Source: an uncultured Candidatus Sumerlaeota bacterium
GTDB taxonomy: Bacteria > Sumerlaeota > Sumerlaeia > SLMS01 > JAHLLQ01
Direction: 5' to 3'
Length of the DNA stretch: 64,000 bases
Assembly: GCA_964580585.1 (NCBI GenBank)
Contig: CAZOKZ010000013.1
Span: 52 to 64,051, forward strand
Position 1 is the first letter of the stretch; each line of letters starts with the position of its first letter. The position numbers and the translations under genes are program-made. The notes below the pieces were generated by a model, which searched no databases, was not told the DNA's origin, and worked only from the letters and a program-made list of their open reading frames with translations. Positions 1-43,199 of the stretch are shown one piece after another.

Positions 1-3000
1 ATGGTGGCAATGCCGGGATCGAACGCGCTCGAAATCGAAAACCGCGTCACGCGACCAATGGAAAAATTGCTCTATGAAATTCCCGGTGTCGAATATGTGT
101 ATTCCACGTCGCAGGAAGGCCAAAGTCTGGCCATCGTGCGTTTTTACGTTGGCGAGGACATCGAGGATTCCATCGTCAAGCTGAACCAGAAGTTGCAAAC
201 CAACTTCGACCGCATTCCGCACGGTGTTTCGGCGCCGCTCGTTAAGCCGCGTTCCATCGACGATGTGCCGATTCTGGCCGTCACGTTTCACAGCGACGCG
301 TACGATCACTACACGTTGCGGCAACTCGCCGTGCAGGTGCACGAAAGCATCGCGCAAGTCAAAGACGTGGCCGAAACGCAAATCATTGGCGGTGCGCATC
401 GCCAGGTGCGCGTGCTGCTCGATCCCTCGAAACTCGCCGCGCGCAACCTGAGCGTTGCGGGCATCGTGCCGATGCTCCAGCAGGCTAATCGCCAACTGGT
501 TTCCGGTGGCGTGACGACGGACGACCAGGAAGTGCTCGTCGAAACGGGCGCCTTTTTGCGCGACGAACAAGACGTGGCGAACGTTGTGGTTGGCGTGTTC
601 AACGGACGACCCGTGTACCTGCGCGATGTGGCTACCGTAACCGACGGGCCGGAAGAACCCACGCAATACGTCCTGTTTGGCCAAGGCGCGGCGACCGCGT
701 CCCTTGCGCACGAACAACCTGCCGTGACAATCACCGTTGCCAAGCGCCCCGGCACCAACGCCGTGGTGGTGGCCGACCGTGTGCTGGAAAAAAGCGAGAC
801 GTTACGGGGACGGAGCATTCCCTCCGATGTCGAAATGACCATCACACGTCATTATGGACGCACCGCAGCGGAAAAATCCGACGAACTGTTGCTGCACATG
901 GGCATTGCGGTGCTCAGCGTCGCGATCCTGATCATGCTGATGCTCGGTTGGCGTGAGGCAGGCATCGTTGCGCTGGCGATTCCCTCGACGCTTGCGCTGA
1001 CGTTGCTCACGTTTTACCTGACGGGCTACACGTTGAACCGTATCACGTTGTTCGCGTTGATTTTCTCGATCGGTATTCTTGTCGATGATGCGATCGTGGT
1101 TGTGGAGAACATTGTGCGGCACTATCATCTGCCGCATCATCGTGGGCGTTCCATGGCGAGTATGGCGATCGAGGCCGTTGCCGAAGTGGGCAACCCGACA
1201 GTGCTCGCGACGTGGGCTGTCATCGCAGCCATCGCGCCGATGGCCTTTGTTGGCGGGTTGATGGGGCCTTACATGCGTCCGATCCCCGTCGGCGCCAGCG
1301 CCGCGATGTTCTTCTCGCTCGTCATTGCGTTCATTGTTACGCCATGGGCCGCGATCCGGTTGCTCAAAGATAACAACGGCAATGTGCCCGGCGAGATCGA
1401 CGAATCGACTCCGTCCCCCCACGCGAACATCGAACACGACGAAGATTTTTTCACACGCCTTTATCGTCGAATCATGGGTCCGATTATTCATCATCCCCTC
1501 GTGCGTTGGTTGTTTCTGATTTCCATCACCGCGTTGTTTGGCGCGGCATGTTATTTGGTCGTCAACGGCGCAGTGAAAGTTAAAATGCTGCCCTTCGACA
1601 ACAAGAACGAATTCCAGATTATCCTCAATATGCCCGAGGGCAGTTCGCTCGAACGCACCACGCAAGCCGCGCGCGAAATCGCCGCCGCCGTGCGTGTTGA
1701 ACCCGAAGTCACGGACTACCAGGTTTACGCGGGAACCGCAGCGCCGTTTAATTTCAATGGCCTCGTGCGCCACTATTATATGCGGCAAGGTGCGCATGTC
1801 GCCGATTTGCAAATCAACTTGCTTGGCAAGCACGAACGCGTTGCACAGAGCCACGCTATCGCGTTGCGAGTCCGTCCCCGCGTGGCGAAAATTGCCGAAA
1901 AATACGGCGCGCGTGTTGCCGTTGCCGAAGTCCCTCCTGGCCCGCCTGTACTGCAAACGCTCGTCGCGGAAATTTACGGACCCACGCCCGAAGCCCGCAT
2001 GGCGCTCGCCGAAAAAGTGCGCGATATCTTCCGCAATACCGAAGGCGTCGTTGACATCGATTGGTACGTCGAAGCCGACCAGCCCAAAACGCGTTTCGTG
2101 ATCGACAAAGAAAAAGCCGCGCTGCACGGCATCAGCGCCTCGACCATTTCGCAAACGTTGCAAATCGCCGTCGCGGGGCAATCCATCGACCTTGTGCATA
2201 TGCCGCAACAACGCGAGGACGTGAACCTTGTGCTGGAAATGCCGCGCGAATTGCGCAACTCGCCCGAAGAACTGCTCGCCCTGCGCGTGCGGTCTGGCGA
2301 TGCGAACGCATTGCCGGAACCAGGACCCGTCTCCGTCCCTCCGCTCGTGCCGATGCGCGAACTCGTGCATCTCGAACGCGGCATTGCGGACAAAAGCATC
2401 TACCACAAAAACCTGATGCCGGTAACGTATGTTACTGCTGATGTGGCGGGCACTATTGAAAGTCCCGTTTACGCGATTCAACAAATCAACCACGAGTTTG
2501 CAAAATTGCGCGCCGCCGATTTCGGAGGGACGGAGGGCAACGTTGGGCTTTACAACCTCTTCATGCCGTTCACCGATCAGCAACCCGCCATCAAGTGGGA
2601 TGGCGAGTGGCAGATCACGCTCGAAGTATTCCGTGATCTTGGCATCGCGTTTGTCGCCGCGTTGATCCTGATTTACGTGCTCATGGTCGGGTGGTTTCGT
2701 TCGTTCGTCGTGCCGCTTGTCGTTATGGCCGCGATCCCGTTTTCGCTCGTCGGAATTTTGCCTGCGCACGCGGCGATGGGTGCGTTTTTCAGCGCCACGT
2801 CGATGATCGGTTTCATGGCGGGAGCGGGCATTGTCGTGCGCAATTCGATCATCCTCGTCGATTTCATCGAGTTGCGCCGCCGCGAAGGCATGCCGCTTGC
2901 CGAAGCCGTCATCGACGCGGGCGCCGTGCGTTTCCGGCCCATGCTGCTGACCGCGCTGGCCGTCGTCGTAGGCGCCGCCGTGATTTTATTCGACCCGATT

Positions 3001-3111
3001 TTCCAAGGCCTCGCGCTCTCGCTTATGGCGGGCGAAGTCGCCTCGCTGCTCATCAGCCGCATGGCCGTGCCGGTGCTGTACTCGATGGTGGGGACGGTGG
3101 AAAAACAATAA
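1..3111 (+). CDS. RND efflux transporter permease (AcrB/CzcA family), 5' partial
   Basis: 1036-aa ORF running in from the window edge. Twelve-TM architecture with two large periplasmic loops; typical HAE/HME-RND sequence (GxxxD, '[11 protein letters not shown]' TM4 motif). Stop TAA at 3109-3111. Confidence 0.85.
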
Positions 3112-3184
3112 CCGCGAAGCCACCAAGGCGCGAAGGAAGGCGAAGACAAAGTTCTTTGCGAATCTTTGCGTCTTTGCGGTGAAG
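3112..3184. repeat. structured octamer-arm repeat family, degenerate copy
   Basis: CGCGAAGGAAGGCGAAGACAAAG ... TTCTTTGCGAATCTTTGCGTCTTTGCGGTGAAG. Shares the CTTTGYGAATCTTTGCG linker with the copy at 4441. Confidence 0.5.
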
Positions 3185-3265
3185 TATTTATTTCTCTCTC
3201 GAAGCAACAACTCTTGCCGCCTCGGCGTTTACAAATGAAGACTCTTTTCTGGCCGAGGCCGCACG

Positions 3266-4264
3266 ATGTCCCTTTACTTGCTCGAGAAACCCGCCATGTC
3301 GCCCATTACGGTTCATGAAGCTACTTCCCGCTACGACGACGGCGTGCGCGCGCTCTTTCGCGCTGCGCATGTGCCGATTGATGGCGCGTTTTGGGCGCGG
3401 GCGTTTTCGCCCGATAACCCCGGCGGCACGGCCAGCCAACCGCTCGTTGCCGTGGACGAAGAAACCGGCGCGGTCGAAGGTTTTTTGTGCGCGCGACCGA
3501 TCAAACTTCATTTCGAGGGCGAGTTTGTCGATGCGCAGGTGCTGCACGATTTTGTTCTGCGTTCGGGTCCTGCCGATTTGGGGTCGGCGGGACATGCGAT
3601 GATTCGCGAAGCGCTCACTCGGGCGGAAATGACAATCGTTGCGGGGGCGGGGACGGCACTGACACCTGTGCTCGAGGCCGAAGGGTTTTTGCTCGCCGGT
3701 TTTTTTTCGCGCATGCGATTCGATCCCGTCGATGGCGATTCTGCGCGACCCGACATGACGTTGCCGTTTGTATTTTCACGCGCCGACGATTTTCCTCCAG
3801 CGCTCGAAAAACTCAACCAGGCGCATCTGACTGAAAAACGCATCTTTCGGATGCGCGATTTTTCTCAACGCACCTGGCTCTTTGCGGGACCTGCGCCGGA
3901 GTTTGAAATCCTGATCGCCGCGGAAGACAGTCCGATCGATGCTTACGTGGTGTTGCGCACCGTGACGGGGCGGTTTGGTCCGGAACTCCATGTCGTCGAT
4001 TTTGCGTGTCCGATTCATGCCGCCAAACGCCTGTCGCTCGCGTTGCGAGAACTAGCTCACGAACGCCAGCAAACGCTCTACGTCAGTTTTTTCGGCCGTG
4101 CCTGGAACGATGTCTTTATGAGCGCAGGTTTTCAACTCTTGCGCGCGCGATGGGCGCTGCAATTTCAGATGCGCGATCCCCGGCAACGCGCCATTTCCGG
4201 TGCGCTGATGCGTTCCGAGTCCTGGTTCTTCACGCCCGCAGACGGGGAAATCGATCACTGGTAA
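3266..4264 (+). CDS. hypothetical protein (possible acyl-CoA N-acyltransferase-like fold)
   Basis: 332-aa ORF, ATG at 3266 with GAGG 8 nt upstream; high-GC codon usage. Followed by a rho-independent terminator at 4369-4403. No motif I can name confidently. Confidence 0.5.
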   Translation: MSLYLLEKPAMSPITVHEATSRYDDGVRALFRAAHVPIDGAFWARAFSPDNPGGTASQPLVAVDEETGAVEGFLCARPIKLHFEGEFVDAQVLHDFVLRSGPADLGSAGHAMIREALTRAEMTIVAGAGTALTPVLEAEGFLLAGFFSRMRFDPVDGDSARPDMTLPFVFSRADDFPPALEKLNQAHLTEKRIFRMRDFSQRTWLFAGPAPEFEILIAAEDSPIDAYVVLRTVTGRFGPELHVVDFACPIHAAKRLSLALRELAHERQQTLYVSFFGRAWNDVFMSAGFQLLRARWALQFQMRDPRQRAISGALMRSESWFFTPADGEIDHW

Positions 4265-4275
4265 AAGGAAGAGCA

Positions 4276-4487
4276 AACCACAGAGGCACGGAGACACAGA
4301 GGAATCACGGAGGGAAAATATTTAACGCAGAGACGCAAAGACGCGGAGAATATTTTTAAACAATAAGCGGGACGGAGTCATTGTTTGCTCCGTCCCTTTT
4401 TTTAAACTCTGCGTCGCTGCGCCTCTGCGCGAGAAAAAAACTTTGTGAATCTTTGCGGTCCCTCTGTGTCTCCGTGCCTCTGTGGTT
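4276..4487. repeat. structured octamer-arm repeat family (CACAGAGG flavour) with nested inner arms (CGCAGAG flavour)
   Basis: Outer arms AACCACAGAGGCACGGAGACACAGAGG... / CCCTCTGTGTCTCCGTGCCTCTGTGGTT. Inner arms CGCAGAGACGCAAAGACGCGGAG / CTCTGCGTCGCTGCGCCTCTGCGCG. A terminator sits in the centre. Confidence 0.7.
4369..4403 (+). terminator. rho-independent terminator nested inside repeat element
   Basis: GGGACGGAG-TCATTGTTTG-CTCCGTCCC hairpin followed by T7. Confidence 0.75.
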
Positions 4488-4496
4488 AAATAATAC

Positions 4497-6422
4497 TCAC
4501 CACGCCGAGGCAGAGGCCGACGCGTTTTCGTCCGCTTCGTACAGGTCCTTGACATTGACCGCTTCGCCGAAGTTCGCCCACAGCAGGCACAGATTATACC
4601 GATGAAACTCGTCGTCCGAAGGAAACTTCTGCGGGCGCGGATCTTTGTCCTTCAGGAAATTTGTCACCGTGCGGGTGACGACGGCGCCGGGGCACTTTTT
4701 CGTCAGCTTTTCTAAAAACGCCCGTGCGGCTTCGTTGGCATCCGCATGTTTGTCTCCCATTGCTGCAACCCAGTCGATGGTCCCTTCGCGCAGGCGGAAC
4801 AACATTGTGGGTTCCTTGCAAAATAAATCCACCGTTGGCTCGCGGTCGATCCGTCCACAACTGATCAAACGGATATGTTCCCACTTGGCTTTTTTCACAC
4901 CGCGATTGGTGTGCATGCGTAATCCCGGATCGAGCACGTCGAATTTATGCACGTCGTGGCATGGATCGGGGCAGAGTGAGGGGTCCATGGCGACGAAGAG
5001 AAAATTCTGGCGAACCTTGCGCAGATGCGGGTACATCTCGATCAGGTCATCGTAACTCAATCCCTCGCGCAAAATGCCTTTTCGTTCAATGATGGCCTTG
5101 CGGGCTTCGCCTTCAGAGAGTTTTTCGGTCGCCTTTACCACTTCGACCACTTGATCCATGCTGATTTTCACGCCGCCCTGGGCCAGCAACATGGCGAATT
5201 CCAACGAGCGGAATCGTTCGTTCGGTCGGTCCGTGCGTCCGATGGTGGCGGGGGTTGGGTCTTGTTGATATTTTTCAATCGGTTGGCGATGTTTGTCGCG
5301 TGCCCATCCCGTGGTGCCACCGGGCAGATCGTCGCGCTGACCCGGCATCGGGAATTTTTTGATCACATCGCGCGAGCCGATGGAAAGCGGCGGGGTGTCT
5401 TCGTACATGTCGAAGTGACCCTTCAAATTCTCAGAGTCCTCGGCATATTCTTCCGGCAGCCCACCGGGATGTTCGAGTCCCAGAGGCGGGCCGAAAAAAT
5501 CATCCGAAATTTGATCGGCCGACAGCGGCTCGTCCTTGCGCGGAAGCGAAGACTTTACCGGTTCGGGTGCTTTACGCTCGGTTTTGATGGGCTCCGTCAC
5601 GCCCGGCAGATGCGAATCGAATGCGAGAGGCGGGTTGAAAAAGTCATCATCAACTTTTGGCGCCTCAAACGCATTGCTGGCGCGTGACGGCGCTTCGTTT
5701 AATTTCGGAGCCGCCATCGTTGCATCGTTGTCGGCATGGCCGAAATCGATTGCTAACGCCTCGTCTTCTTCCGCTTTGGCAGGTTTTTCTTCATCATCTG
5801 AAAGATACAAACCAGAGCCTAAATCAACAGCGGAACCACCCGAGCCGTCTTTGAAATTGTGGTCCGTCGAAATCAGTGCGCCGTAATCCGATTCCGTCGG
5901 CAGCGAATTAATATCTCGATGTTGTTCTGCCGCATCGGCGAACAAATTGACGGAGGAACCTTCGGGTTCCGTTGCGGGGGGTGGAGATTTTCGCCGCTCA
6001 AGAGTCTTGGCATCCGGCACACCCTTGCCGTCCGGCAATCGTTGCAAAATTCCACGGGCGTCCTGGGCATCGTTGGCCGAGGGGTTGGAGGCCAGGAAGT
6101 CCTCCAGATACGAACGGCATTTTTTATAATCTTTCACCCGGTAAGAAATATGTCCCGCGCCGCGCAAACTGACCTTATACGATTCGTGCTCGTCGCCCAC
6201 ATCGATAATGCTCTCGTACGCTTGCAGCGCCAGTCGCGGTTCATTTCCTAATTCGAGCAAACGGGCCAGATCGAACTGGAAATGACCATCGAGCATCAGA
6301 TCGGGGTCCACCCGAAGCGCATCCTCATAGGCGCGCGCCGCCTGCAGGCTTTCGCGCATGAAAATAGCACGATTCAGCTCTGCAATCAGTTCCTCTTTTC
6401 GGCTCGTTCCGCTCGACGACAT
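4497..6422 (-). CDS. TPR-repeat protein with acidic low-complexity linker and conserved C-terminal domain
   Basis: 641 aa. N-terminal TPR-like helices (AYEDALRVDP..., LALQAYESII), a long D/E/P-rich linker, and a Cys/His-containing C-terminal domain. Convergent with the upstream gene. Confidence 0.6.
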   Translation of the reverse strand: MSSSGTSRKEELIAELNRAIFMRESLQAARAYEDALRVDPDLMLDGHFQFDLARLLELGNEPRLALQAYESIIDVGDEHESYKVSLRGAGHISYRVKDYKKCRSYLEDFLASNPSANDAQDARGILQRLPDGKGVPDAKTLERRKSPPPATEPEGSSVNLFADAAEQHRDINSLPTESDYGALISTDHNFKDGSGGSAVDLGSGLYLSDDEEKPAKAEEDEALAIDFGHADNDATMAAPKLNEAPSRASNAFEAPKVDDDFFNPPLAFDSHLPGVTEPIKTERKAPEPVKSSLPRKDEPLSADQISDDFFGPPLGLEHPGGLPEEYAEDSENLKGHFDMYEDTPPLSIGSRDVIKKFPMPGQRDDLPGGTTGWARDKHRQPIEKYQQDPTPATIGRTDRPNERFRSLEFAMLLAQGGVKISMDQVVEVVKATEKLSEGEARKAIIERKGILREGLSYDDLIEMYPHLRKVRQNFLFVAMDPSLCPDPCHDVHKFDVLDPGLRMHTNRGVKKAKWEHIRLISCGRIDREPTVDLFCKEPTMLFRLREGTIDWVAAMGDKHADANEAARAFLEKLTKKCPGAVVTRTVTNFLKDKDPRPQKFPSDDEFHRYNLCLLWANFGEAVNVKDLYEADENASASASAW

Positions 6423-6594
6423 AAGATATTCCTGCTTTCCGAAACTAATACGTGGAAATGCTGCGCTCCCTATCTAACATATTTACGCGATCGAATGCGC
6501 CGATTCAAGTGCAAACCCCCTGGATTTTGCAAATGATTATTGAAATCAACCACCAGAATACGTGCCCGGACCGGCTCGGGTTTCCAATTAAGCA

Positions 6595-8484
6595 TCAAAA
6601 TCGTGGATTGTACAGGATAGCGATGCCATTGTTGTTGTATTGGAATTTCCAGTCTCGACCGAGCAAGTCCACGATATGCGAGTTGTCGGCATTCAGGATG
6701 AGCATGTCGAATTTCTCCTCCAACGTTGGATCGTCGAGTTGGAACGAGGACACCTTGTTTTTCAACGCCGGACGGTATAGCAGAGTCTCCATCAAATCCG
6801 GATGAATATTTCCTATGCGGACGTTTTCCGGAACCTCGGCCAGCGCCAACCCGCGATAGAAATCCCGCATGGTCGATTGGGGAAAGTGCGATTGGAAGAC
6901 ATCCTGAGCGATCAGGTAATTGCGTCCCCGGCGTTCGGCTTCCTGCCGGGCGGAAAAATGGAAAATATCGCGTTGGGCATCCAGGATGAAAAACGGCAGC
7001 ATCACCGTGCCAAAGATGAACCAAAAACTGACAAGCAGATTGCGGAGCTTACAACTGGGGAGCGCTTCGAGAAAGGCCCAATATGCCAAGGGAGACAACG
7101 CAATGGCGAACAACACATAACGTGCCCACCAATTGCTGGGCATCAGGAAAAATAATCCCAGACAAGCACTCAGAAGGAACGCACGCTGCCATTGACGTTT
7201 GAGCAAGGAAGCCACCAGCCCCAGACCCCATCCCGCCAATCCCAGCCAAAAAAACAGGTAACCGAACCCTCCCAGGCGGGAAGTAAACAGATACCCGCCG
7301 TTGTCCAGCACGCGAACACTTCCCCATAGTTGCCCCAACTTCGACTTTCCGGCGATCGATTCGGGAATGCCCACCGACATGATTTCCGTTGGCTTGTAAA
7401 CACCGGGAAATTCCAGCCCACCCACGTGAATTTCTATCGGGTAGAGAGGATTGCCTTTCGCTGCCCAGTTCCAGATCCACCAGTACGACGAAAGCGCCAG
7501 CCCCATCGCCGCCCAAAGGCTAACCATCCCAGCAACGCGTTTCCATCCAGGCCAGCGGTGGATCAACGTCCCGCTCCACAAGGCAAACAGGACGAATGCG
7601 TAGAGCATGCCGTTGCCTTTCAGGCCCAGGAGCATGGCCGCTGCCAATCCTGCAACAGCTCCGAGTCGCCCAGGTGTTTCCGACTCGCGGGATTGTACCA
7701 ACGCCGCCAATCCGGTCAAAAAAACCGAGGCCACATTGATGTCGATATCGCCGGTGTCGCGAATGAGGGTGATAACGAAAACGGGCGCCATCAGCGCACT
7801 GGCCGCCAATGCCGCTGCCGAACCGGAGGACGCCTTCCACGCGCGAAGCATGCTGTAAACCGATGCGACGATCACGATCGAGTGCATCCATGGCAGCATG
7901 CGTGCGGGTGTGTCCCAGCCAGAAACCGCCAACATCCACGCGGCAATGATTTCTCCGTTTTTCGGATAGTGAACCACCGCCCAGGATACCGAAGGCAAAT
8001 CCAATAATCGTCCTTCCTGGAGGAACATCAGGCTGATGGGGCGATGATATTGAAATGTGTCCCAGGCGCTGGCGGGGTAAAGAAACGTATAAAATCCCAG
8101 GTAAATCAGGCCACTTGCCAAAACGAAAACCGCGCTCCAAAACAACGGATCTTCCGGCCATCCGGGCCAGGTTTGTCGTAAACGTTCCCAGAAATTGGGA
8201 CGAATCGCGACAAAAAGGCTCGAAACCAGAACCGCGAGCAACGGCAAGGCGAAAAATAATCCCCGAGAGTACCAACCCGTCAGCGAAAGCACCTCGGCGC
8301 CCAGGATGATCGCCGTGTTCCAGGCCAAAAAGGCTACCGCGAAACAAAGGCTCCATCGCGAGTCAGGCAGCCATCGTCGAACAAGCAGGCTGGAACCAAA
8401 CCAGGCGGCAAGAAACAGGAATAGCGTCGCGCCGACGCTAGAAGCAACTTCCGGAGGAAACGGTTTCATCTGGAAAATCCTCAC
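6595..8484 (-). CDS. polytopic membrane protein, possible GT-C fold glycosyltransferase (ArnT/PMT-like)
   Basis: 629 aa with more than 12 predicted TM helices and large loops. Sequence composition resembles GT39/GT83 family membrane glycosyltransferases; the function is inferred only from architecture. Confidence 0.5.
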   Translation of the reverse strand: MRIFQMKPFPPEVASSVGATLFLFLAAWFGSSLLVRRWLPDSRWSLCFAVAFLAWNTAIILGAEVLSLTGWYSRGLFFALPLLAVLVSSLFVAIRPNFWERLRQTWPGWPEDPLFWSAVFVLASGLIYLGFYTFLYPASAWDTFQYHRPISLMFLQEGRLLDLPSVSWAVVHYPKNGEIIAAWMLAVSGWDTPARMLPWMHSIVIVASVYSMLRAWKASSGSAAALAASALMAPVFVITLIRDTGDIDINVASVFLTGLAALVQSRESETPGRLGAVAGLAAAMLLGLKGNGMLYAFVLFALWSGTLIHRWPGWKRVAGMVSLWAAMGLALSSYWWIWNWAAKGNPLYPIEIHVGGLEFPGVYKPTEIMSVGIPESIAGKSKLGQLWGSVRVLDNGGYLFTSRLGGFGYLFFWLGLAGWGLGLVASLLKRQWQRAFLLSACLGLFFLMPSNWWARYVLFAIALSPLAYWAFLEALPSCKLRNLLVSFWFIFGTVMLPFFILDAQRDIFHFSARQEAERRGRNYLIAQDVFQSHFPQSTMRDFYRGLALAEVPENVRIGNIHPDLMETLLYRPALKNKVSSFQLDDPTLEEKFDMLILNADNSHIVDLLGRDWKFQYNNNGIAILYNPRF

Positions 8485-8632: not shown

Positions 8633-10147
8633 ATGCTCGAACAGATCGATCCCAAGCTGAAAATCGAAAAAGAGCATTACCTTCAGGCATTGCCCAGTCT
8701 GAAAACCGGGTTGCGTGAATTGCAGCAGCGCGCCCGCGAAGCAGGAATTCCAATTATCATTCTGCTGGAAGGTTGGGATACCTCGGGCAAAGGCGACGCC
8801 ATCCAACATGTGACAGAAGTTCTCGATCCTCGTGGGTTTGAAGTGCATTATATCGCACTTCCCACGGAGGAGGAACTCGCTTTTCCATGGTTGCGGCGTT
8901 TCTGGGTTCGTTTGCCGCACAGAGGTCAGTTCGGAATTTTCGAGCGATCCTGGTACACACGCGTTCTCCAACGGCGTGTCGAGGGTCAGGTATCCACGCG
9001 CGATTGGAAACGAGCTTACCGTGAAATCAACGAAACCGAGCGTCAACTGACCGACGACGGGGCGTTGATCATCAAATTCTGGCTGCATATCTCGGAAAAA
9101 GAACAGCGTAAACGTTTGAAAGCCGCAGAGCGAAACCCTTTCCGCCGATTTACCGTCACAAGCGAGGAGTGGCGTCGTCACGCCCATTACAAGGACTACT
9201 TCCATGCCGCCGACGAAATGATCCGGCGCACTTCAACACCACAGGCGCCGTGGATTGTGATCGAAGCGGGAAGCAAACGGTTCCGCCGATTGAAAGTTTT
9301 GCAGGAAATCAGCCGTACGGTGACCGAACGGCTGGAAATCTACGAGGAGCAACAACGTCTGGAGCCACGCGAACCTCGGAAAAATGGCTCGTCTGACAAC
9401 GGAAACGGGGCCAACGCCCAATCGCCACTCGGCAGCGTGGACTTAACACTTTCGCTCGACCGTGAAACGTACCGCCAGCGAATGAAGGACGGCCAGGTGC
9501 GCTTGTCCCAGCTTCAACAACGCGCCCACCACAAAGGCGTTCCCATGGCGATTGTTTACGAAGGCTGGGACGCGGCGGGCAAAGGCGGCAATATTCGTCG
9601 AATGCTGGCAACCCTCGATCCGCGCGGCTATCGCGTGATTCCCATTGGCAAACCCACCGCCGAAGAACTGGCGCACCACTATCTCTGGCGGTTCTGGAAA
9701 CACGCCCCCCATGCGGGGAACATTATGATATTCGACCGCTCGTGGTACGGGCGAGTATTGGTCGAACGCATCGAAGGGTTTTGCACCGAGCGAGAGTGGC
9801 GTCGCGCGTTTCAGGAAATTCGCGAATTTGAACGACATTGGTTGAATTCCGGAGTCGTTGTCGTCAAATTCTGGCTTCATATTTCGCCCGAGGAACAACT
9901 GCGCCGTTTTACCGCGCGGGCAGAATCCCCCGACAAGAAATGGAAATTGACAGACGAAGACTGGCGAAATCGCGAAAAGTGGAATCGCTACGTGGTTGCC
10001 GTTGACGAAATGATCCGAAAAACATCGACCCAAAAAGCGCCCTGGACCGTAATTCCCGGCAACTGCAAGCTGTGGGCGCGGGTGCAAACGATCGAGACCG
10101 TGTGCGAGGCGTATGAAGCGGCGCTCGCTCGGCACGACAAAAAGTAA
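8633..10147 (+). CDS. ppk2: two-domain polyphosphate kinase 2 (polyphosphate:AMP/nucleotide phosphotransferase type)
   Basis: 504 aa with two tandem PPK2 domains. Each has a Walker-A-like GWDxxGKG (ILLEGWDTSGKGD and VYEGWDAAGKGG) and a lid motif (WLRRFW... / YLWRFW...). Confidence 0.85.
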   Translation: MLEQIDPKLKIEKEHYLQALPSLKTGLRELQQRAREAGIPIIILLEGWDTSGKGDAIQHVTEVLDPRGFEVHYIALPTEEELAFPWLRRFWVRLPHRGQFGIFERSWYTRVLQRRVEGQVSTRDWKRAYREINETERQLTDDGALIIKFWLHISEKEQRKRLKAAERNPFRRFTVTSEEWRRHAHYKDYFHAADEMIRRTSTPQAPWIVIEAGSKRFRRLKVLQEISRTVTERLEIYEEQQRLEPREPRKNGSSDNGNGANAQSPLGSVDLTLSLDRETYRQRMKDGQVRLSQLQQRAHHKGVPMAIVYEGWDAAGKGGNIRRMLATLDPRGYRVIPIGKPTAEELAHHYLWRFWKHAPHAGNIMIFDRSWYGRVLVERIEGFCTEREWRRAFQEIREFERHWLNSGVVVVKFWLHISPEEQLRRFTARAESPDKKWKLTDEDWRNREKWNRYVVAVDEMIRKTSTQKAPWTVIPGNCKLWARVQTIETVCEAYEAALARHDKK

Positions 10148-10283: not shown

Positions 10284-11414
10284 ATGGATTCGATTCGTGC
10301 CTTTTTTGTACTGTTGGTGATGGCTGCGGGCTCCTGGGCTCCCGCCTCGAACTTAACGGTGAATTTCAGCACCCCCACAGGGGTGGAGCCGAAATTCAGC
10401 GAGGTTCGGTTCGTGTTGAACTATCAAAGCAGTCCTTATTCCCCGGCGGTCGAGCTGATGGAATACGCGCATGAGGGGATCAATTTCTCCAAAACCATGG
10501 AGGAACTCCCACGCGGTCGGTATTCTTTGTTCGTGCACACGGGCAAAGCCGGCGATGCCATGGATGCCAATCGACCGGGGGCTTTCAACTTTTATGACGA
10601 GTTCAATTTGGCCGGAGAGGATAGTAAAACTTTCGACCTGAAATGGGAGCCACTTGAGATTCCCAATGTGCACGGTTCAGCGGTGATGAACGGTCAGGTG
10701 CTCAAAAGCAGCGGCGATCCACATCCGGGTTCGATTATCCGACTGATGCTCTATATTCCGTCAGCGGGTTTTTTGACCGTGGCACAGGGGACCTCGAATA
10801 AAAACGGCGATTTCTCGCTCAAGGACATCAATCCCGATTATCTTTATGTTCTGAGAATGGACGATAATATTTTGGCCCAACGATTCCGCGTGATGGAGGA
10901 TCGAGCCATTACAATTCGTCTGGAACCGATGGCTGGAGAAATGGCGCCCGATATTAAACTGGTTTCACTCGAAGGCGGCGAGGAATCGATGCTCAGCGAA
11001 CGGCGTGGGAAAATCGTCGTTCTGGATTTTTGGGCAACCTGGTGCGGACCCTGTCAACGTCCAATGGCAAAACTGAATTCACTCTATGAAACATATCCCG
11101 AGTGGAAGGACAGAGTCGAACTGATTGCCATGAGCGTGGATTTCGACGCGGAAAAGATCACTCGGCACCTGGATAAAAATGGCTGGCACCAGGTAACCAA
11201 CGTTTGGACAGGCGCTCCCGACGGAATGAGCGCGGCCCAACCCCAGGCGTATTCGATTCGTGGCATTTTCATCGTTTTTGTGATCGACGCCGAAGGAAAA
11301 ATCGCCGCCACGGGCAATCCGAACGTCGTCGATATCGTCCCGGTTGTGGAACGTTTGCTCGGTGAGCTGAAAACCGAAGCGAACGAGATCGCCGAAACGG
11401 AAAACGAATCTTGA
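10284..11414 (+). CDS. secreted TlpA-like thiol-disulfide oxidoreductase with N-terminal beta-sandwich (carboxypeptidase-regulatory-like) domain
   Basis: Signal peptide. Redoxin domain with a WATWCGPCQ active site near the C-terminus. 376 aa. Confidence 0.75.
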   Translation: MDSIRAFFVLLVMAAGSWAPASNLTVNFSTPTGVEPKFSEVRFVLNYQSSPYSPAVELMEYAHEGINFSKTMEELPRGRYSLFVHTGKAGDAMDANRPGAFNFYDEFNLAGEDSKTFDLKWEPLEIPNVHGSAVMNGQVLKSSGDPHPGSIIRLMLYIPSAGFLTVAQGTSNKNGDFSLKDINPDYLYVLRMDDNILAQRFRVMEDRAITIRLEPMAGEMAPDIKLVSLEGGEESMLSERRGKIVVLDFWATWCGPCQRPMAKLNSLYETYPEWKDRVELIAMSVDFDAEKITRHLDKNGWHQVTNVWTGAPDGMSAAQPQAYSIRGIFIVFVIDAEGKIAATGNPNVVDIVPVVERLLGELKTEANEIAETENES

Positions 11415-14783: not shown

Positions 14784-14873
14784 CGCTGTACCCCCTCGAT
14801 TTTGAAAATGGAAAAGCAGATTACCGTTCATTGAATCTACAAGACAAGGCTAGATTTATTCAAAGCCCCCCGA

Positions 14874-14998
14874 GGGCGCATCTTGAGTTTGTACCCAAAA
14901 CGAAGGAAAAACCAAACCGCAAAGGCACCCGCCATAGCCTTGGCGCAGGCGGGTGCCTTTGTGGTGAATCTTTTAATCATTGGCAACAAAGTTGAGAT
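14874..14998. repeat. MITE-like member of the repeat family (short copy) with terminal inverted repeats
   Basis: TIRs GGGCGCATCTTGAGTTTGT / ACAAAGTTGAGAT. Inner hairpin ACCGCAAAGGCACCCGCC / GGCGGGTGCCTTTGTGGT with a G-U wobble. Flanked by direct repeats AGCCCC(CT)CCCCGAGGG (14864-14876 and 14999-15015). Confidence 0.65.
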
Positions 14999-15142
14999 AA
15001 GCCCCTCCCCCGAGGGACCAGCGTTGGCAACTTGACAGAGTGTGATTCCAGATTGACGACTTGACCCCGCGAGTCAATTCTCGGAAAAGTTGTAACAAGG
15101 TATTTCGCCATATTTGGCCATTCCGTATGAAACTGGGAAGCG

Positions 15143-15967
15143 ATGAAGAACATTTTGGTCATCGATGACGAGCAGGACGTTTTGGAGATCGTCCGTTCGG
15201 TGTTGAAAACCAAAGGTTACACCGTTCGGTGTGCCGTTGGGGGCGAGGACGGTCTGCGCCAGGCCGAGGCGGAAACGCCCGATATGATTATCTGCGACCT
15301 GATGATGCCGAAAATTTCCGGCATGGAAGTGGTCAAACGGCTGAAGAAAAACCCCGCATTTGACGAAGTGCCCATTATTATTCTCTCCGCCGTGGCGGCC
15401 GAAAGCGACAAGCCCGAAGAGTATTGGGCGCGTGGCCTTGGCGTGGACGAGTATATTTGTAAACCATTCGATCCATTGGACTTAATCGGTCGTGTGGAGT
15501 ATTTGCTCCGTCGCAAACATTATGTTTCGGCCAACCGCGCCGGGGCGACACCGATGCCCCGTCGCGATACGCCCGAGCCGCCTCCGGCATCTCGTCTGGA
15601 GACAGCCGGGCCCTCGGATATTTGCGCCATGTATGTCGAAACGTGGAACAGTCGCGACTGGGTGACGGAATACAACCTGATGGGCGAGGAATTAGTTGGC
15701 AATTACCCGATCGACGATTACGTGGGCCGTCGCCAATATGCCTATGAACAGGAAGAGCAAGGCCGCAGTCAGTCGGTGGCGGGCTACATCGAGGAAAAAA
15801 TCTCGGGCGTCATCGCCAAGGTGGTTCTCGAGCGCAAAGACAACATGGCGAACGGACGAGTTTGGATGAAAAAGTGCACCTTTACGCTCAAGAAAACCAA
15901 CAAGGGATGGAAAATCGTCCGCGTTCGCGACTTGCCTTTGCGCAAGTGCGATACGCAGTTTGAGTAA
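15143..15967 (+). CDS. response regulator (CheY-like receiver) with C-terminal uncharacterised ~150-aa domain
   Basis: Receiver-domain motifs (VIDDEQD...DMIICDLMMPKISG...KPFD). No DNA-binding output domain is recognisable. Confidence 0.75.
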   Translation: MKNILVIDDEQDVLEIVRSVLKTKGYTVRCAVGGEDGLRQAEAETPDMIICDLMMPKISGMEVVKRLKKNPAFDEVPIIILSAVAAESDKPEEYWARGLGVDEYICKPFDPLDLIGRVEYLLRRKHYVSANRAGATPMPRRDTPEPPPASRLETAGPSDICAMYVETWNSRDWVTEYNLMGEELVGNYPIDDYVGRRQYAYEQEEQGRSQSVAGYIEEKISGVIAKVVLERKDNMANGRVWMKKCTFTLKKTNKGWKIVRVRDLPLRKCDTQFE

Positions 15968-15978
15968 GCAAGGATGAA

Positions 15979-16256
15979 GGGGCGTATCTTGAGTTTGTTA
16001 CCAAAACGATAAAAAAAGCAAACCACGAAGGCACGAAGACACAAAGAAAACACGAAGGGGCTGTTTGCCTGCTTGCAATTTTCTCGCTCTTCGATGGCGA
16101 GCGAGCGAAAAAATCCGTCAAAAAATGGCGATTTCAATTTTTGAAAAGGCCTTGATGGAAAATCAATGAATACAATTTTTTCTTCGTGTTCCTTTGTGAC
16201 CTTCGTGCCTTCGTGGTGAATCTTTTAATAATTGGCAACAAAGTTGAGATGCGCCC
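15979..16256. repeat. MITE-like member of the repeat family (long copy, CACGAAGG flavour)
   Basis: Homologous to 14874-14998 at both ends (GGGGCGTATCTTGAGTTTGTTACCAAAACGA... / ...GTGGTGAATCTTTTAATAATTGGCAACAAAGTTGAGATGCGCCC). Arms AACCACGAAGGCACGAAGACACAAAG / CTTTGTGACCTTCGTGCCTTCGTGGTG. ~120-nt loop with an internal hairpin. Confidence 0.7.
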
Positions 16257-16329
16257 AGGAAGAGAGATAAATAATAGGTAATCTTGACCGAGTTTATCCC
16301 TCAGCTTTTTCATCCCTCATCCTTTGAAT

Positions 16330-16932
16330 TTACTCCTCTTCATCTTCCTGAAACGCGTCGCTTCCCGATTGCGAAAGAATCAGGTCGCCGAAGGACAACG
16401 TGCCGTTAGTCGGATCGTATAATACGGTCAGACCAAACGTGTGTGTGTTGTCCGGGCCGGCGCTGGTGATTTTCCATGTGCTGTATCCAAAATGCGCCCG
16501 CCAGATTTCCGTCATCGCCACATCGTTCGGGATATCGTTCCAGTAGGAAGTCGAATAATCGAACGTGTGCTTTCCATTGCTCAGAAAATGCGTGTGTCCG
16601 GGCCGTGTTGGGTTTTGCAGCCCGGGGTATTGAAACGGGTCCACCGGCAGCGAGGTGATGTAGGCCACGGGCGTGGTGACCTGGCTGAGGGAGTTGACCC
16701 ATCCCCAGTACGTAAATCCGGGCTCGCCATCGAATGGCGGACGTCCGTTGTCGGTGGCATAAGACTCGATGGCATTTGCCAGAGCTTTCATATCGGCGCG
16801 AGCCCGGCTGACTTTCGAGCGCGCTTGCGCTTCCAGCATATTCGGCACCGCGATGGCCGATAGAATTCCGATCACTGCAACCACCACCATCAATTCAATC
16901 AGGGTAAATCCGTATTTTTCAGTTATTTTCAT
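16330..16932 (-). CDS. prepilin-type N-terminal cleavage/methylation domain protein (pseudopilin-like)
   Basis: N-terminal 'GFTLIELMVVVAVIGIL' class III signal / N-methylation motif. 200 aa. Confidence 0.8.
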   Translation of the reverse strand: MKITEKYGFTLIELMVVVAVIGILSAIAVPNMLEAQARSKVSRARADMKALANAIESYATDNGRPPFDGEPGFTYWGWVNSLSQVTTPVAYITSLPVDPFQYPGLQNPTRPGHTHFLSNGKHTFDYSTSYWNDIPNDVAMTEIWRAHFGYSTWKITSAGPDNTHTFGLTVLYDPTNGTLSFGDLILSQSGSDAFQEDEEE

Positions 16933-18724: not shown

Positions 18725-19885
18725 ATGGAAAACGACCGTTTGACGCGATTTAGTAGCCTTAAAATAAAAGGTTTCCGGCGGCTAAACGATTTGGAACTCG
18801 ATCTGCGTCCATTTACCGTATTGATTGGGGCGAATGGTGTTGGGAAAACCAGTCTTTTGGATGCATGGACTCTTCTGGCTCGGTCTGCAAAAGGAGAGTT
18901 ATCTCAAACGATTTCGGAAATGCATGGTTTGACAGCGATGCGTTCGGGTGGTGTGGCGGAACGTATATCATTTCAAATCTCTATGCTAATTGAGAAAAAA
19001 AAACCAATCCTTTACGATCTAAATTTGGCGCCAGAAGGAACAGGTTATGTGATTGAAAGAGAAGATTTGCATGAATATCAGGATTCTACTCCCTTTAGCC
19101 TTCTCACGTCATACCTTCATTATGTTTATTACTCAGACCCCAAAACACAACAATTGACTGAAGCTGATTGGGAGACCAAAGCTGGCCAGACAGCTCTTTC
19201 CCAAGTGCCCCCCATGTATAAAGAGCCAGAGCGATTTCGAAAAGCTCTGGCATCTTCCACATTTTATCATACACTGGATGTTGGTCCGCGTTCTCCCGTT
19301 CGTCTTCCCCAGCAAATGCATCCAGCCGAATTACCAGGCGCGAATGGAGAGGATCTCGTTTCTTGTTTATTCTATCTGCGCGAGACCGATAGCGAACGAT
19401 TTGAGGCGGTGGAGGATGCCTTGCGAGCGGGATTTCCCGGATTCGAACGCTTAGAATTTCCTCCCGTTGCGGCGGGTACACTCGCGCTCGCTTGGCGCGA
19501 CCGAAATTTTTCGCGCCCCATGTACATGCATCAGCTCTCTGAGGGAACATTGAGATTCTTGTGGTTGGTAACGTTGCTTCAGTCACCTGGATTGACCGAG
19601 GTAACGCTGATCGACGAACCTGAGGTGAGCTTACACCCCGAGCTTCTCAACCTCTTAGTTCATTTATTTCGCGAAGCGAGCCAGCGAACCCAGATCATTG
19701 TCGCTACCCACGCCGACCGGTTTGTTCGATTTCTCAAGCCTGAAGAAGTCGTGATTATGGATATTAATGAAGAAGGCTATTCGACCGCTACATGGGGAGA
19801 CGATCTTGATTTGGATCGATGGCTTTCCGATTATACGCTCGATGAGTTATGGGGAATGGGCGAAATGGGGGGGCGATCACGGTGA
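18725..19885 (+). CDS. ABC/AAA_21-type ATPase (OLD/RecF-like P-loop NTPase)
   Basis: Walker A GANGVGKTS, signature-like LSEGTLRF, Walker B LIDEPEVSLHP, and an H-loop IIVATHA. AAGGAA RBS. GC content (~45%) is markedly lower than the flanks (~60%). Confidence 0.75.
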   Translation: MENDRLTRFSSLKIKGFRRLNDLELDLRPFTVLIGANGVGKTSLLDAWTLLARSAKGELSQTISEMHGLTAMRSGGVAERISFQISMLIEKKKPILYDLNLAPEGTGYVIEREDLHEYQDSTPFSLLTSYLHYVYYSDPKTQQLTEADWETKAGQTALSQVPPMYKEPERFRKALASSTFYHTLDVGPRSPVRLPQQMHPAELPGANGEDLVSCLFYLRETDSERFEAVEDALRAGFPGFERLEFPPVAAGTLALAWRDRNFSRPMYMHQLSEGTLRFLWLVTLLQSPGLTEVTLIDEPEVSLHPELLNLLVHLFREASQRTQIIVATHADRFVRFLKPEEVVIMDINEEGYSTATWGDDLDLDRWLSDYTLDELWGMGEMGGRSR

Positions 19886-20487
19886 AGATTATCATCATGG
19901 TCGAGGGAGAAACCGAAAAAGTGTTTCTTCCATTTTTACGGGGATTCCTACAAAATCGACTGAACAACATGCCCAAACTAAAGCCGAGTGTTTTTGATGG
20001 TGCCGTGCCGACGGGAGCAAAGTTAAAAAGGGCAGTTGAGAATTATTTTTCTGGCAAAGAGCCAGCGGATCACGTCATCTGGCTAACCGATGTTTACCCT
20101 GGGAAAGGCATTTGGACCACAGCCGAAGAAGCGAAGCAAAAAGCCCGCGAATGGGTTGGTCCAGAAGACAGATTTCATCCTCATGTTGCGCTTCATGATT
20201 TTGAAGCATGGCTTTTACCATATTGGGATCGAATCAAAAAGCTGGCAAAAACAGAACGGACTGCGCCTTCCGGCAAACCGGAATCCGTAAACCACATGAA
20301 ACCACCCGCTTATCACATCAAGGAAGCCTATCACGTAGGCAAATGTCGTAAGGATTACAAGAAGCCCATCGATGCTCCAAAGATTCTAAAAGACCAGGAC
20401 TTAATGATTTCCATCAACGCCTGTCCCGAGTTGAAAGCATTGGTAAATACCATCCTTGAAATTTCAGGTGGGGATAAAATTCTATAA
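19882..20487 (+). CDS. DUF4276-like small protein (putative TOPRIM-like nuclease partner of the ATPase)
   Basis: A GTG start at 19882 overlaps the upstream TGA (GTGA coupling) and has a G-rich RBS. The alternative ATG at 19897 lacks an RBS. Conserved 'IIMVEGETE' N-terminus plus D/E-rich motifs (WLTDVYPG, ALHDFEAWLL). ~201 aa, low GC. The family assignment is from memory, not a search. Confidence 0.6.
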   Translation: MKIIIMVEGETEKVFLPFLRGFLQNRLNNMPKLKPSVFDGAVPTGAKLKRAVENYFSGKEPADHVIWLTDVYPGKGIWTTAEEAKQKAREWVGPEDRFHPHVALHDFEAWLLPYWDRIKKLAKTERTAPSGKPESVNHMKPPAYHIKEAYHVGKCRKDYKKPIDAPKILKDQDLMISINACPELKALVNTILEISGGDKIL

Positions 20488-22955: not shown

Positions 22956-23066
22956 GGGAAAGGATGAGGGATGGGGGATCGGGATGATTTGAATCTCTGG
23001 CCGCCCTACTCCCCCCGAACCCCGAACCTCCGCTATTTTCATCCTTCATCCCTCCTGCCTCATCCC
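22956..23066. repeat. structured octamer-arm repeat family (GGATGAGG flavour)
   Basis: GGGAAAGGATGAGGGATGGGGGATCGGGATGA ... TTCATCCTTCATCCCTCCTGCCTCATCCC. Contains the TTTGAATCT linker. Confidence 0.6.
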
Positions 23067-23077
23067 TTGAAAATAAA

Positions 23078-23118
23078 CTCGCCCCGAAGGTGGAAGCCTT
23101 CGGGGCGAGTGTTGTTTT
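23078..23118. terminator. bidirectional rho-independent terminator (glgB / rny convergent)
   Basis: Perfect 13-bp stem CTCGCCCCGAAGG/CCTTCGGGGCGAG with a 6-nt loop, flanked by an A-run upstream and TGTTGTTTT downstream. Confidence 0.7.
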
Positions 23119-30922: not shown

Positions 30923-31109
30923 TACCACGAAGGGCAGGAAGGCGCGAAAAACACAAAGGAACAAGAAGAAAAGAATTTAGCCACAGAGGACACAGAGTTC
31001 AAAGAGAGGTTCTGCGAATTTTGCAACACAGTTCGTAATCGAGTTTTGGGAAATTGAAAACGGCGAACTTTAGAAATCCCTTCTCGGTGATCTCTGTGTC
31101 CTCTGTGGC
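30923..31109. repeat. structured octamer-arm repeat family (CACGAAG arm fragment plus perfect 18-bp CACAGAGG-type IR)
   Basis: GCCACAGAGGACACAGAG (30980-30997) and CTCTGTGTCCTCTGTGGC (31092-31109) are exact reverse complements. Upstream is TACCACGAAGGGCAGGAAGGCGCGAAAAACACAAAGG. Confidence 0.7.
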
Positions 31110-31119
31110 AAAAAAGTTC

Positions 31120-41765: not shown

Positions 41766-42167
41766 TCAATCCGTGGGCCAAAGTTCACGTAGCCACCAAT
41801 CGAATTCTTCTGGCGAAAGGTGATAAAGAATAAATTCGCGTAACCCCAGTAAATCGTCGCGAACCAAAATCTGGGGCAGTAGTTGGGCTTGGCGGGACGA
41901 AGACAACAAACCTTCGCAAAACCCTATCGCTGCCGCTGTGTGCACATCCCCGTTGGGGTGCTTTAAACACCACTTGGCGTACCACCAGATCCGTCGCAGC
42001 AGACCAAGTAGCGGCGGGTTTTGCTCGCATAAACGATCAAATTCGAGGCCGAGCAAAATCCACAGCATCATGGGGTTATCCACATCACGCGAGGCGATGA
42101 TCCGCTGAAATTCCGGTAATTGTTTGGATGCTTCCCGTCTCCACTGGCTCATTTTGTCCCTTCCCAT
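41766..42167 (-). CDS. hypothetical Trp-rich protein
   Basis: 133-aa ORF with plausible codon usage and no recognisable domain. Confidence 0.4.
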   Translation of the reverse strand: MGRDKMSQWRREASKQLPEFQRIIASRDVDNPMMLWILLGLEFDRLCEQNPPLLGLLRRIWWYAKWCLKHPNGDVHTAAAIGFCEGLLSSSRQAQLLPQILVRDDLLGLREFILYHLSPEEFDWWLRELWPTD

Positions 42168-42309
42168 GTGTCGCGCACTTTCAGCGCGCAGCCTCTTTAC
42201 CGTTCGTTTTCCCAGGGCGACGTGCTTCGCACTTTGCCCAGAGCTGCTATGTAGCGCGCCTTTGGCGCTGAACGATGCAGCAGTCTTCTGAACGATTCAT
42301 GTCTGAATG

Positions 42310-42410
42310 ACGAAAAACTCCATCCACTAAAAACCATCAACTATTGACTATAAACTATTAACCAACAACCCCACTAAAAACTGTCCACTGTAAACTGTGA
42401 ACTGATATCT
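42310..42410. repeat. AT-rich tract with direct repeats (CCACTAAAAAC x2, AACTATT x2, ACTGT x3)
   Basis: Seen directly in the sequence, 3' of yidD. GC content is far below that of the surrounding sequence. Confidence 0.6.
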
Positions 42411-42421
42411 GGTCACTTCTT

Positions 42422-43062: not shown

Positions 43063-43199
43063 CCGGAGACGGTCAAGCGATGGCGGCCCTTCGCGCGGCG
43101 ACGGGCCAGGACTTTACGACCGCTGGCCGATGCCATGCGTGTACGGAAACCGTGTTTGTTCACGCGGCGGCGGCGGCTGGGTTGATAGGTTCTTTTCAT
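43059..43199 (-). CDS. rpmH: 50S ribosomal protein L34
   Basis: Not in the ORF track (under 60 aa). Manual translation of the minus strand gives [46 protein letters not shown], canonical L34. GGAAGGTGAG RBS. Confidence 0.9.

Follow-up and report, generated by a model that had tools for sequence, protein, structure and literature searches.

The window analysed here, 64,000 nt of contig CAZOKZ010000013.1 from an uncultured Candidatus Sumerlaeota bacterium, holds at positions 4276–4487 a long inverted repeat whose arms consist of short tandem units, and related hairpins stand in other intergenic gaps of the same DNA. The question that the locus raises is what these hairpins are. We consider it probable that they are members, lacking an open reading frame (ORF), of a family of selfish hairpin elements that is associated with a nuclease and has expanded in this lineage. 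In the element that we propose, the stem would be made of short tandem units, purine-rich and 7–8 nt long on the 5' arm and complementary to these on the 3' arm, and in its full form it would enclose a small gene, mostly one for a GxxExxY (PDDEXK_3) nuclease. The family would have spread in this Sumerlaeota lineage mostly just behind stop codons and sometimes into its own copies, and the sequence "flavours" of the arms would represent subfamilies in which arms and units change together, tracking the phylogeny of the enclosed gene. Our direct observations concern the repeats and their polarity, the association of the arms with the gene, the co-inheritance of the two, discrete ends common to the copies, spread across phyla and absence from relatives. 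Taken together, they suggest that the elements are selfish and resemble the intervening sequences (IVSs) of rRNA, rather than being conserved regulatory RNAs.

Structure of the repeat family

An earlier note on the window, made from its letters alone, had reported structured inverted repeats dispersed over at least eight intergenic loci, and these proved to be real. The four longest local inverted repeats in a census of the 64 kb were all members of the family, three tandem copies of the pattern CRCRRAGR occurred six times in the window and not once in 100 dinucleotide-preserving shuffles, and the elements folded far better than their mononucleotide-shuffled selves on both strands (z of -1.4 to -17). 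Both ends of an independent short-read contig (L001) with 100% identity to positions 14990–16048 fall inside the repeat, as expected for multi-copy DNA.

The element at 4276–4487, hereafter the focal element, occupies the gap between two convergent genes that end at 4264 (+ strand) and 4497 (- strand). Its outer, CAC-type arms (4276–4302, AACCACAGAGGCACGGAGACACAGAGG, and 4461–4487, the exact complement) are 27 nt long and 100% complementary, and its predicted fold reaches -120 kcal/mol (z of -13.8 on the + strand and -17.3 on the - strand). The locus is nested: inside the CAC-type arms lies a CGC-type hairpin at 4326–4430, with arms at 4326–4349 (CGCAGAGACGCAAAGACGCGGAGA) and 4407–4430 (CTCTGCGTCGCTGCGCCTCTGCGC), and at the core lies a canonical intrinsic terminator, identified by a terminator scan at 4369–4403 on the + strand (a 10-bp GC-rich stem, 4369–4396, followed by T7). 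The CGC flavour of the inner hairpin is the one that brackets GxxExxY genes, and its arms pair with those at 49590–49616 and 50002–50043 at 96% and 79%, respectively.

Throughout the family the arms are built from tandem units of 8 nt (CRCRRAGR) or 7 nt (GGATGRR), the loops span 5 to more than 400 nt, and the purine arm always precedes the pyrimidine arm. Such an order within a palindrome holds on both strands and is, therefore, a real property of the element. The earlier note was right that flavours are matched between partner arms, and its 8-nt unit holds for the CRCRRAGR type, but the GGATGAR flavour (22956–23068, 62903–63083 and 16290–16335) has a period of 7 nt. Its claim that partner arms compensate each other exactly applies at the focal locus only; elsewhere the arms are 78–88% complementary. 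The common motifs that it listed, GCAAACC and GTGAATCTTT, belong to the next stem segment, where they face each other and pair imperfectly.

No part of the window matched Rfam at the gathering threshold, positions 3000–4600 gave no Rfam match at E ≤ 1, and the window contains no tRNA. The focal element had no blastn match in plasmid and phage collections, and searches by repeat sequence and by family names found no paper describing the repeat. The judgement that this is not a described repeat class is upheld by these searches, and the palindromic repeat family is apparently widespread and undescribed. A CRISPR array was rejected as a candidate, given inverted pairs of 7–8-nt tandem units without regular spacers, and protein-coding repeats and binding arrays of the CsrA or Hfq type were rejected on repeat anatomy.

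A GxxExxY gene enclosed by the arms at 49579–50088

The inverted repeat reported at 49591–50030 is genuine, but the gene remnant between its arms had been overlooked, and with it the association of the family with GxxExxY nuclease genes. The module as a whole spans 49579–50088 (- strand), with CGC-type arms at 49586–49617 and 50004–50035 and an outer inverted repeat at 49579–49600 and 50067–50088. In its loop of 386 nt lies a GxxExxY/PDDEXK_3 gene (49620–50003, - strand) that matches TIGR04256 (E = 1.2e-38, 132.1 bits against a cut-off of 35) and PF13366 (E = 4.4e-39, 133.9 bits against a cut-off of 22). One in-frame stop makes it a pseudogene; the catalytic motifs D, ExK and QxxxY are retained. 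The purine arm adjoins the ATG, the pyrimidine arm stands behind the stop codon, and the module is co-oriented with the flanking enolase and methyltransferase genes.

Residues D67, E77 and K79 do not vary among the aligned proteins and Q91 and Y95 hardly do; together they make up the RecB/Cas4-type motif set. The fold is that of a Cas4/RecB-like nuclease with intact catalytic motifs, and the conserved residues indicate that the protein is very probably an active nuclease. The family comprises at least 19,394 clusters at 50% identity, and a survey of the PD-(D/E)XK superfamily gives the function of PDDEXK_3 as "Unknown" and records multiple transfers (PMC3424549). A sequence search of the PDB with the GxxExxY protein returned no relative, and PADLOC and PHROGs returned weak similarity to the Cas4 core and nothing more. 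Family members of 275–295 aa, among them P0242–P0244 and P0247, carry two tandem GxxExxY domains.

Association of the arms with GxxExxY genes in other genomes

The GxxExxY protein of the window, with its stop repaired, was used as the query for a metagenome scan, which yielded 80 loci at 65–76% identity, 73 of them non-redundant. At 40 of these 73 loci the gene was wrapped by a strict two-sided criterion (at least two purine units no more than 50 nt upstream and at least two pyrimidine units no more than 65 nt downstream), compared with 3 of 1,534 control windows from the same loci. The canonical module is anchored on the start and stop codons and reads TCTCGCG-CAGAGACG-CAGAGGCG-CAGAGA-ATG ... 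stop-(0-6 nt)-CTCTGCG-YCTCWGCG-CCTCTGCG-GGAGA, and the sequence GAGG lies about 8 nt ahead of the ATG.

The wrapper extends to more distant proteins. The gene of L122 (protein 55% identical) has CACAGAGG arms, that of L213 (42% identical) has CACRAAG arms together with a GGTGAAT linker, as in the window, and that of L212 (43% identical) has CGCAGAT arms. Four more contexts of the L213 subfamily, in metagenome-assembled genomes (MAGs) of Alphaproteobacteria and in a phage-like contig, all showed CAC-type arms, and this arm type wraps the GxxExxY gene in six of six independent contexts (L122, L213, L344, the L349 group, L356 and the L358 group). All three cultured isolates also carry the wrapper: the wrapped gene lies between fabD and fabG in Sphingomonas parapaucimobilis, between ade and a guanylyltransferase gene in Bernardetia sp., and after radA in Bacteroides finegoldii, where the arms (TTCACCACAGAGG...CCTCTGTGGTGAA) have the flavour and the outer ends (ACCAC...GTGGT) of the focal element.

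Gene and hairpin also occur in permuted arrangements. In a MAG of the Deltaproteobacteria, ORF-less hairpins of matching flavour stand beside a GxxExxY gene, and the permutations include hairpin-gene-hairpin layouts and solo arms. The former layout is seen in L204, in which the same 9 nt (GAAGACTGA) precede both hairpins. At 9890–9975 and 10376–10465 of that contig, a host Wzy_C gene has GAAGACTGA as its end, as does the GxxExxY gene, and near-identical complete hairpins follow, which implies that the last codons of the host gene are apparently derived from the element. Viral contigs were scanned with gapped patterns for CAC-type arms separated by a loop long enough for a gene, with no match in one scan and one match in the other, and a family-wide search of such contigs for GxxExxY loci gave only 11, of which the giant-virus-like ones were without arms.

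Polarity, spread and inheritance

Viral contigs provided a larger sample of the arms themselves, with at least 120 stretches of three tandem CRCRGAGR units. Among 135 purine-arm seeds in these contigs, a complementary arm (at least 20 of 24 positions, no more than 600 nt away) was located downstream of 49 and upstream of 4, and the 7-nt flavour, likewise with at least 120 stretches, had 24 partners downstream versus 1 upstream. Copies in unrelated genomic contexts have common outer terminal repeats (TAACTAYTCAGCATAT ... TATGCTGAATAGTTAC) at which the similarity ends, delimiting a unit of about 560 nt.

The two arms were concordant in flavour at 40 of 42 loci, and at 40 of 42 the nearest protein neighbour was of the same flavour, for which the chance expectation is about 61%. 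Since flavour tracks the protein neighbour in this way, arms and gene descend together. Flavour switches hit all units of both arms jointly, whereas the number of units varies (2, 3 or 4). Joint switching that also tracks the phylogeny of the gene indicates common descent and concerted evolution, not independent compensation, and the "co-varying flavours" are subfamily signatures kept by concerted evolution.

Proteins 70–78% identical are named from MAGs of Deltaproteobacteria, Bipolaricaulota and Sumerlaeaceae. The nearest named relatives of the RNase Y of the window, at 59–80% identity, belong to Candidatus Sumerlaeota (formerly BRC1). About 60 kb from four related Sumerlaeota contigs contained no tandem unit of either type, compared with eight loci in the window, and ordinary terminators follow the RNase Y gene in these relatives; the family is, therefore, not a conserved regulatory feature of the lineage. 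A DnaN genome scan for close relatives returned only matches of 24–27% identity from unrelated phyla.

Hairpin arms of unrelated tandem 7-nt units (GATTTTG, GATTGNC, GTCCTTT, CGTTTCT and others), with several hairpins in a contig and no purine-first order, were seen at 2493–2635, 4756–4843, 6502–6595 and 12194–12317 of contig L025 and in L018, L030, L055 and L088. The architecture is thus more general than any one sequence, and it is generic in some genomes.

Remaining copies in the window

The ORF-less hairpin at 3112–3184 starts right behind the stop codon (3109–3111) of a gene assigned to AcrB by Pfam, and consists of irregular CGCGAAGG-type purine units followed by CTTTGCG-type pyrimidine units. 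Its predicted fold is -32.6 kcal/mol on the + strand, with five G-U pairs, and -19.1 on the - strand.

The loci at 14874–14998 and 15979–16256 had been listed separately. Both inverted repeats were confirmed, but they are two copies of one larger, composite element, lying 1.1 kb apart with ends that are 84% and 92% identical. Copy 1 (14874–15004) has an outer stem (14874–14892 and 14986–15004) and an inner CAC-type stem (14916–14933 and 14948–14965), and an exact direct repeat of 10 nt, CCCCCGAGGG, stands on either side of it (14867–14876 and 15007–15016). Copy 2 (15980–16256), situated between convergent genes that end at 15967 (+ strand) and 16330 (- strand), has longer CAC-type arms (16022–16057 and 16182–16217) and a GGTGAATC linker; arms almost identical to these surround a GxxExxY gene of Sphingomicrobium (L349). 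Around copy 2 are what seem to be the remains of a 7-nt GGATGA-type hairpin at 15970–16335, with one or more purine units at 15970–15982 (AAGGATGAAGGGG) and a pyrimidine arm within 16290–16335 (…CATCCCTCATCCTT…). Their complementarity suggests that this hairpin encloses copy 2.

Two other loci are of the 7-nt type. The hairpin at 22956–23068 (GGATGAG GGATGGG GGATCGG / ...CCTCATCC) lies between the convergent genes for GlgB and RNase Y, next to an ordinary terminator hairpin at 23070–23117. The one at 62903–63083, of the GGATGAA type, lies between convergent genes ending at 62902 (+ strand) and 63098 (- strand), with arms at 62910–62934 and 63017–63041 and extra pyrimidine units at 63043–63083. 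Finally, the locus at 30923–31113, between the 3' end of dnaN (31120, - strand) and the start of asnB (30888, - strand), begins with an unpaired run of purine units (30923–30975), followed by a CAC-type hairpin whose arms (30976–31007 and 31082–31113) are 88% complementary.

Pairing in RNA or in DNA

Compensatory base changes and G-U wobbles in the arms had been taken by the earlier note as a sign of selection at the RNA level. That argument failed, since the comparison of G-U with A-C pairs shows no strand bias and there is little covariation. Double changes were limited to three pairs (6 cells, two sequences) among 22 aligned gene-bearing modules. An apparent excess of G-U over A-C (27 versus 7) in the RNAalifold table was discarded because RNAalifold drops A-C-rich columns; when all stacked columns were counted there were 31 G-U and 20 A-C, and a cruder count over all modules gave 35 versus 30. 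For 25 ORF-less hairpins between co-directional genes the counts were 22 in the sense and 28 in the antisense orientation (sign test, p=1.0).

The stem of the modules comprises three 7-bp helices, regularly interrupted, as follows from a mismatch that recurs once per unit. In the alignment (A1) the single recurrent mismatch of each 8-nt unit falls at columns 12/74, 20/66, 24/62 and 32/54, and the mismatch types among the 22 sequences were G-G (14), A-C (9) and A-A (7). Symmetric pairing and flavours that switch in concert agree with upkeep of the repeats as DNA, of which slippage combined with template switching between the arms would be one form (PMC8794818). Indirect hints of a role in RNA come from the orientation of the modules, from arms that adjoin start and stop codons and from the published IVS analogue.

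We regard it as unlikely, yet as the most serious of the alternatives, that the hairpins are RNA elements selected by the host, with a stem kept by selection on RNA pairing. Lying in 3' untranslated or intercistronic sequence, they would serve as terminators, as barriers to 3' exonucleases or as processing sites for RNase III, and GxxExxY genes would merely exploit them. This explanation would account for their placement: seven of the eight elements of the window begin no more than about 12 nt from a stop codon, four of the eight fill convergent gaps (three others lie between co-directional genes and one between apparently divergent genes), and the median distance of ORF-less hairpins to a gene 3' end is 24 nt. 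Of the gene-bearing modules, 20 share the orientation of both neighbours and 2 are opposed to them, the hairpins are very stable as RNA, with 3108–3190 folding better on the strand that is sense for AcrB, and the analogous IVS stem is a substrate of RNase III (PMC4990558). Selection on an RNA structure, however, is hard to reconcile with pairing that lacks strand asymmetry and shows scant true covariation, or with the 12 of 48 ORF-less hairpins that lie between divergent genes. The long stems also lack T-runs, while separate canonical terminators stand at 4369–4403 and 23070–23117, and the related Sumerlaeota from which the family is absent manage with ordinary terminators.

A DNA-level process could also be the whole explanation, with the hairpins arising in place as mutational by-products, often around terminators and with no transposition: slippage would expand the unit, and intrastrand template switching would copy the arm. 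The concerted change of all units in both arms and unit numbers of 2, 3 or 4 are what such a process predicts, hairpins are documented to arise and to be maintained through template switching (PMC8794818), the focal element has a terminator at its core, and in some contigs 7-nt units of unrelated sequence form the same generic architecture. We nevertheless consider this explanation improbable, and more so than the preceding one. Arms and outer ends recur nearly identically in unrelated contexts and different phyla, the two composite copies are 84–92% identical at a distance of 1.1 kb, one gene family is tightly associated with the arms in a fixed orientation, and purine-first polarity is not predicted.

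It is very improbable that the arms serve a gene-cassette system as recombination sites, in the manner of integron attC sites, at which a recombinase acting on folded single-stranded DNA inserts and excises an ORF with its imperfect palindrome: the palindrome does precisely bracket varied single small ORFs (GxxExxY, a phage small terminase, a tail-completion protein), and L204 has hairpin-gene-hairpin with GAAGACTGA before both hairpins, along with solo arms and permutations elsewhere, but neither an integrase (sought with one probe) nor a cassette array was found in the window or beside the modules examined, and the insertions are single and scattered among housekeeping genes.

Weighing the selfish-element interpretation

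Several results weigh against the interpretation that we favour, in which the hairpins are ORF-less members of a selfish family associated with a nuclease. The strict two-sided criterion was passed by only 55% of the metagenomic loci. The only GxxExxY gene seen in the 64 kb is dead and of the CGC flavour, which leaves the CAC and GGATGA flavours without a cognate gene in the window, and GGATGRR arms were nowhere found close to a GxxExxY gene. The loops of the ORF-less hairpins of the window hold no GxxExxY remnant that would point to a derivation from gene-bearing copies. The same arms occasionally enclose a different single gene in phage-like contigs, coding for a small terminase, a tail-completion protein or an unknown protein of 130 aa, which means that the nuclease is not an obligatory cargo. 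Movement was not observed, and the lack of conserved synteny between the window and the related Sumerlaeota precluded a comparison of filled and empty sites. A target-site duplication is convincing at one copy only (14867–14876 and 15007–15016); copy 2 and the metagenomic modules have no convincing one, and the modules show only suggestive short repeats. Lastly, the tandem-unit hairpins that some contigs bear are unrelated in sequence, as would be expected if a generic process generated them.

If the elements are selfish, the enclosed nuclease may act on the DNA of the arms, either as a hairpin or cruciform or through the repeated units, and we speculate that it mobilises the whole element or homes into ORF-less hairpins of matching flavour. 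The long stem, co-transcribed with host genes, would be cut or otherwise processed, by analogy with what RNase III does for the IVS of 23S rRNA. Such processing would limit harm to the host operon and could control translation of the enclosed gene, the presumed ribosome-binding site being in the purine arm.

Comparison with known systems

The closest described architecture is the ORF-bearing IVS of 23S rRNA, as in Coxiella burnetii and Leptospira, which encodes an S23p / four-helix-bundle protein. The terminal inverted repeats of the Coxiella IVS form a 28-bp stem, tandem GACAGAT heptamers in strain-variable number lie just upstream of the ATG of a small loop ORF, and RNase III excises the element by cutting at the first repeat (PMC4990558). 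IVSs are sporadic and horizontally transferred, their ORF is often decaying, and they have been called selfish or parasitic, with function and origin unclear (PMC4990558). The elements described here likewise have tandem purine units of 7–8 nt at the ATG, the complement after the stop codon and a small ORF in the loop, and they share the variable number of units, the spread across phyla and, in the window, a copy with a pseudogene. A long inverted-repeat stem with an ORF in its loop is found at 49586–50035 and at many other loci. Unlike IVSs, they lie between protein-coding genes and not in rRNA helices 9, 25 and 45 (the window has no rRNA), their ORF encodes a PD-(D/E)XK nuclease instead of a four-helix bundle, and many copies are ORF-less.

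In functional terms, the closest analogy is that of repetitive extragenic palindromic (REP) sequences, their doublets (REPINs) and the REP-associated tyrosine transposase (RAYT), with many hairpin doublets and an enzyme gene flanked by repeats. REP/REPIN sequences are dispersed, lineage-specific extragenic palindromic doublets, the RAYT gene is flanked by inverted repeats, and the hairpins far exceed the gene in number (PMC3116915, PMC3337134). Here, too, inverted arms are separated by a spacer and occur in many copies, but each arm is a tandem array of 7–8-nt units and not a single REP of 20–40 nt, and the enclosed gene is GxxExxY/PDDEXK_3 and not a Y1 HUH transposase (PF01797). No such transposase was detected by tblastn in the window or at the GxxExxY loci, a search of limited sensitivity. 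RAYTs are described as typically single-copy in a genome (PMC5581495), whereas the GxxExxY gene family is multi-copy and horizontally transferred. A textbook RAYT/REP-like arrangement was noted in a relative without tandem-unit hairpins, the Sumerlaeia MAG JAHCAW010000011 (L210, 17272–17899), where a gene for a 149-aa Y1 transposase (PF01797) is flanked by two inverted repeats, of 31 nt and 23 nt, that are perfect and nested.

Miniature inverted-repeat transposable elements (MITEs) such as Correia and ERIC are, like these hairpins, short, dispersed and ORF-less, with terminal inverted repeats; they form hairpins in transcripts, lie near gene ends and can nest. Terminal inverted repeats without coding capacity characterise seven of the eight loci of the window. 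The differences are that the arms here are internally tandem-repetitive, that just one copy has a convincing target-site duplication and that the gene-bearing form encodes a small PD-(D/E)XK nuclease. As for a parent element, no related insertion sequence (IS) with a recognised transposase was found, nor any transposase among the scanned ORFs of the window.

Intrinsic terminators are also stem-loops just downstream of stop codons, often between convergent genes. The stems here differ in being 20–45 bp long and interrupted about once per unit, with no T-run behind them. Only the innermost hairpin of the focal element, 4369–4396, qualifies as a terminator; the long arms continue into GGTTAAAT, GGTGAATC, GGCAAAAAAG and the like. 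Template-switch correction of quasipalindromes resembles the family in that either arm can pass a change or an expansion on to its partner, so that compensation seems to occur without selection (PMC8794818), but it is a process of maintenance and not an element, and it leaves dispersal, common ends, polarity and gene association unexplained.

Other features of the window

A low-GC segment of 2.5 kb is flanked by inverted repeats at 42166–42240 and 44689–44762 (30 nt at 90% and 24 nt at 92%). It includes a run of 14-nt tandem repeats at 42310–42403, and its main gene (43364–44650) has a G+C content at third codon positions (GC3) of 0.34 and no Pfam match; the segment (42166–44762) may be a foreign insertion or an IS-like element. 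Another low-GC3 region (0.44–0.46), at 18725–20487, is a pair of genes for an AAA_21 ATPase (Pfam: putative AbiEii toxin domain) and a DUF4276 protein, which looks like a horizontally acquired two-gene module that is possibly related to defence. Direct repeats of 71–77% identity about 760 nt apart (45937–46053 with 46697–46813, and 46198–46276 with 46955–47033) suggest that 45904–46287 and the gene within 46292–47053 are tandem paralogues. The GC skew is 0.16–0.19 over 58000–64000, compared with about 0 to 0.07 in the rest of the window.

Implications

GxxExxY genes are systematically wrapped by a stem of tandem units, and gene-less copies of that stem can colonise a genome. The repeats break short-read assemblies, and core operons are among their insertion sites, as between fabD and fabG. 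The wrapper gives the GxxExxY family a concrete biological context, that of a selfish hairpin element, as well as testable substrates for the enzyme. An IVS-like architecture is, moreover, common outside rRNA, including in cultured and tractable Bacteroides and Sphingomonas, and the presence of the wrapper in such bacteria makes mobility and RNA processing directly testable. More tentatively, and with appreciable doubt, we propose that GxxExxY nucleases, tandem-unit hairpins and ORF-bearing rRNA IVSs might form one large, unrecognised "stem-wrapped ORF" class of selfish elements, in which hairpin or cruciform DNA with units of matching flavour would be recognised by the nuclease, which would then mobilise the element or home into empty hairpins, and RNase III-like excision of the stem would make insertion into operons or rRNA nearly harmless. 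If such a class exists, a family that counts more than 19,000 protein clusters would gain a function, and IVSs an origin.

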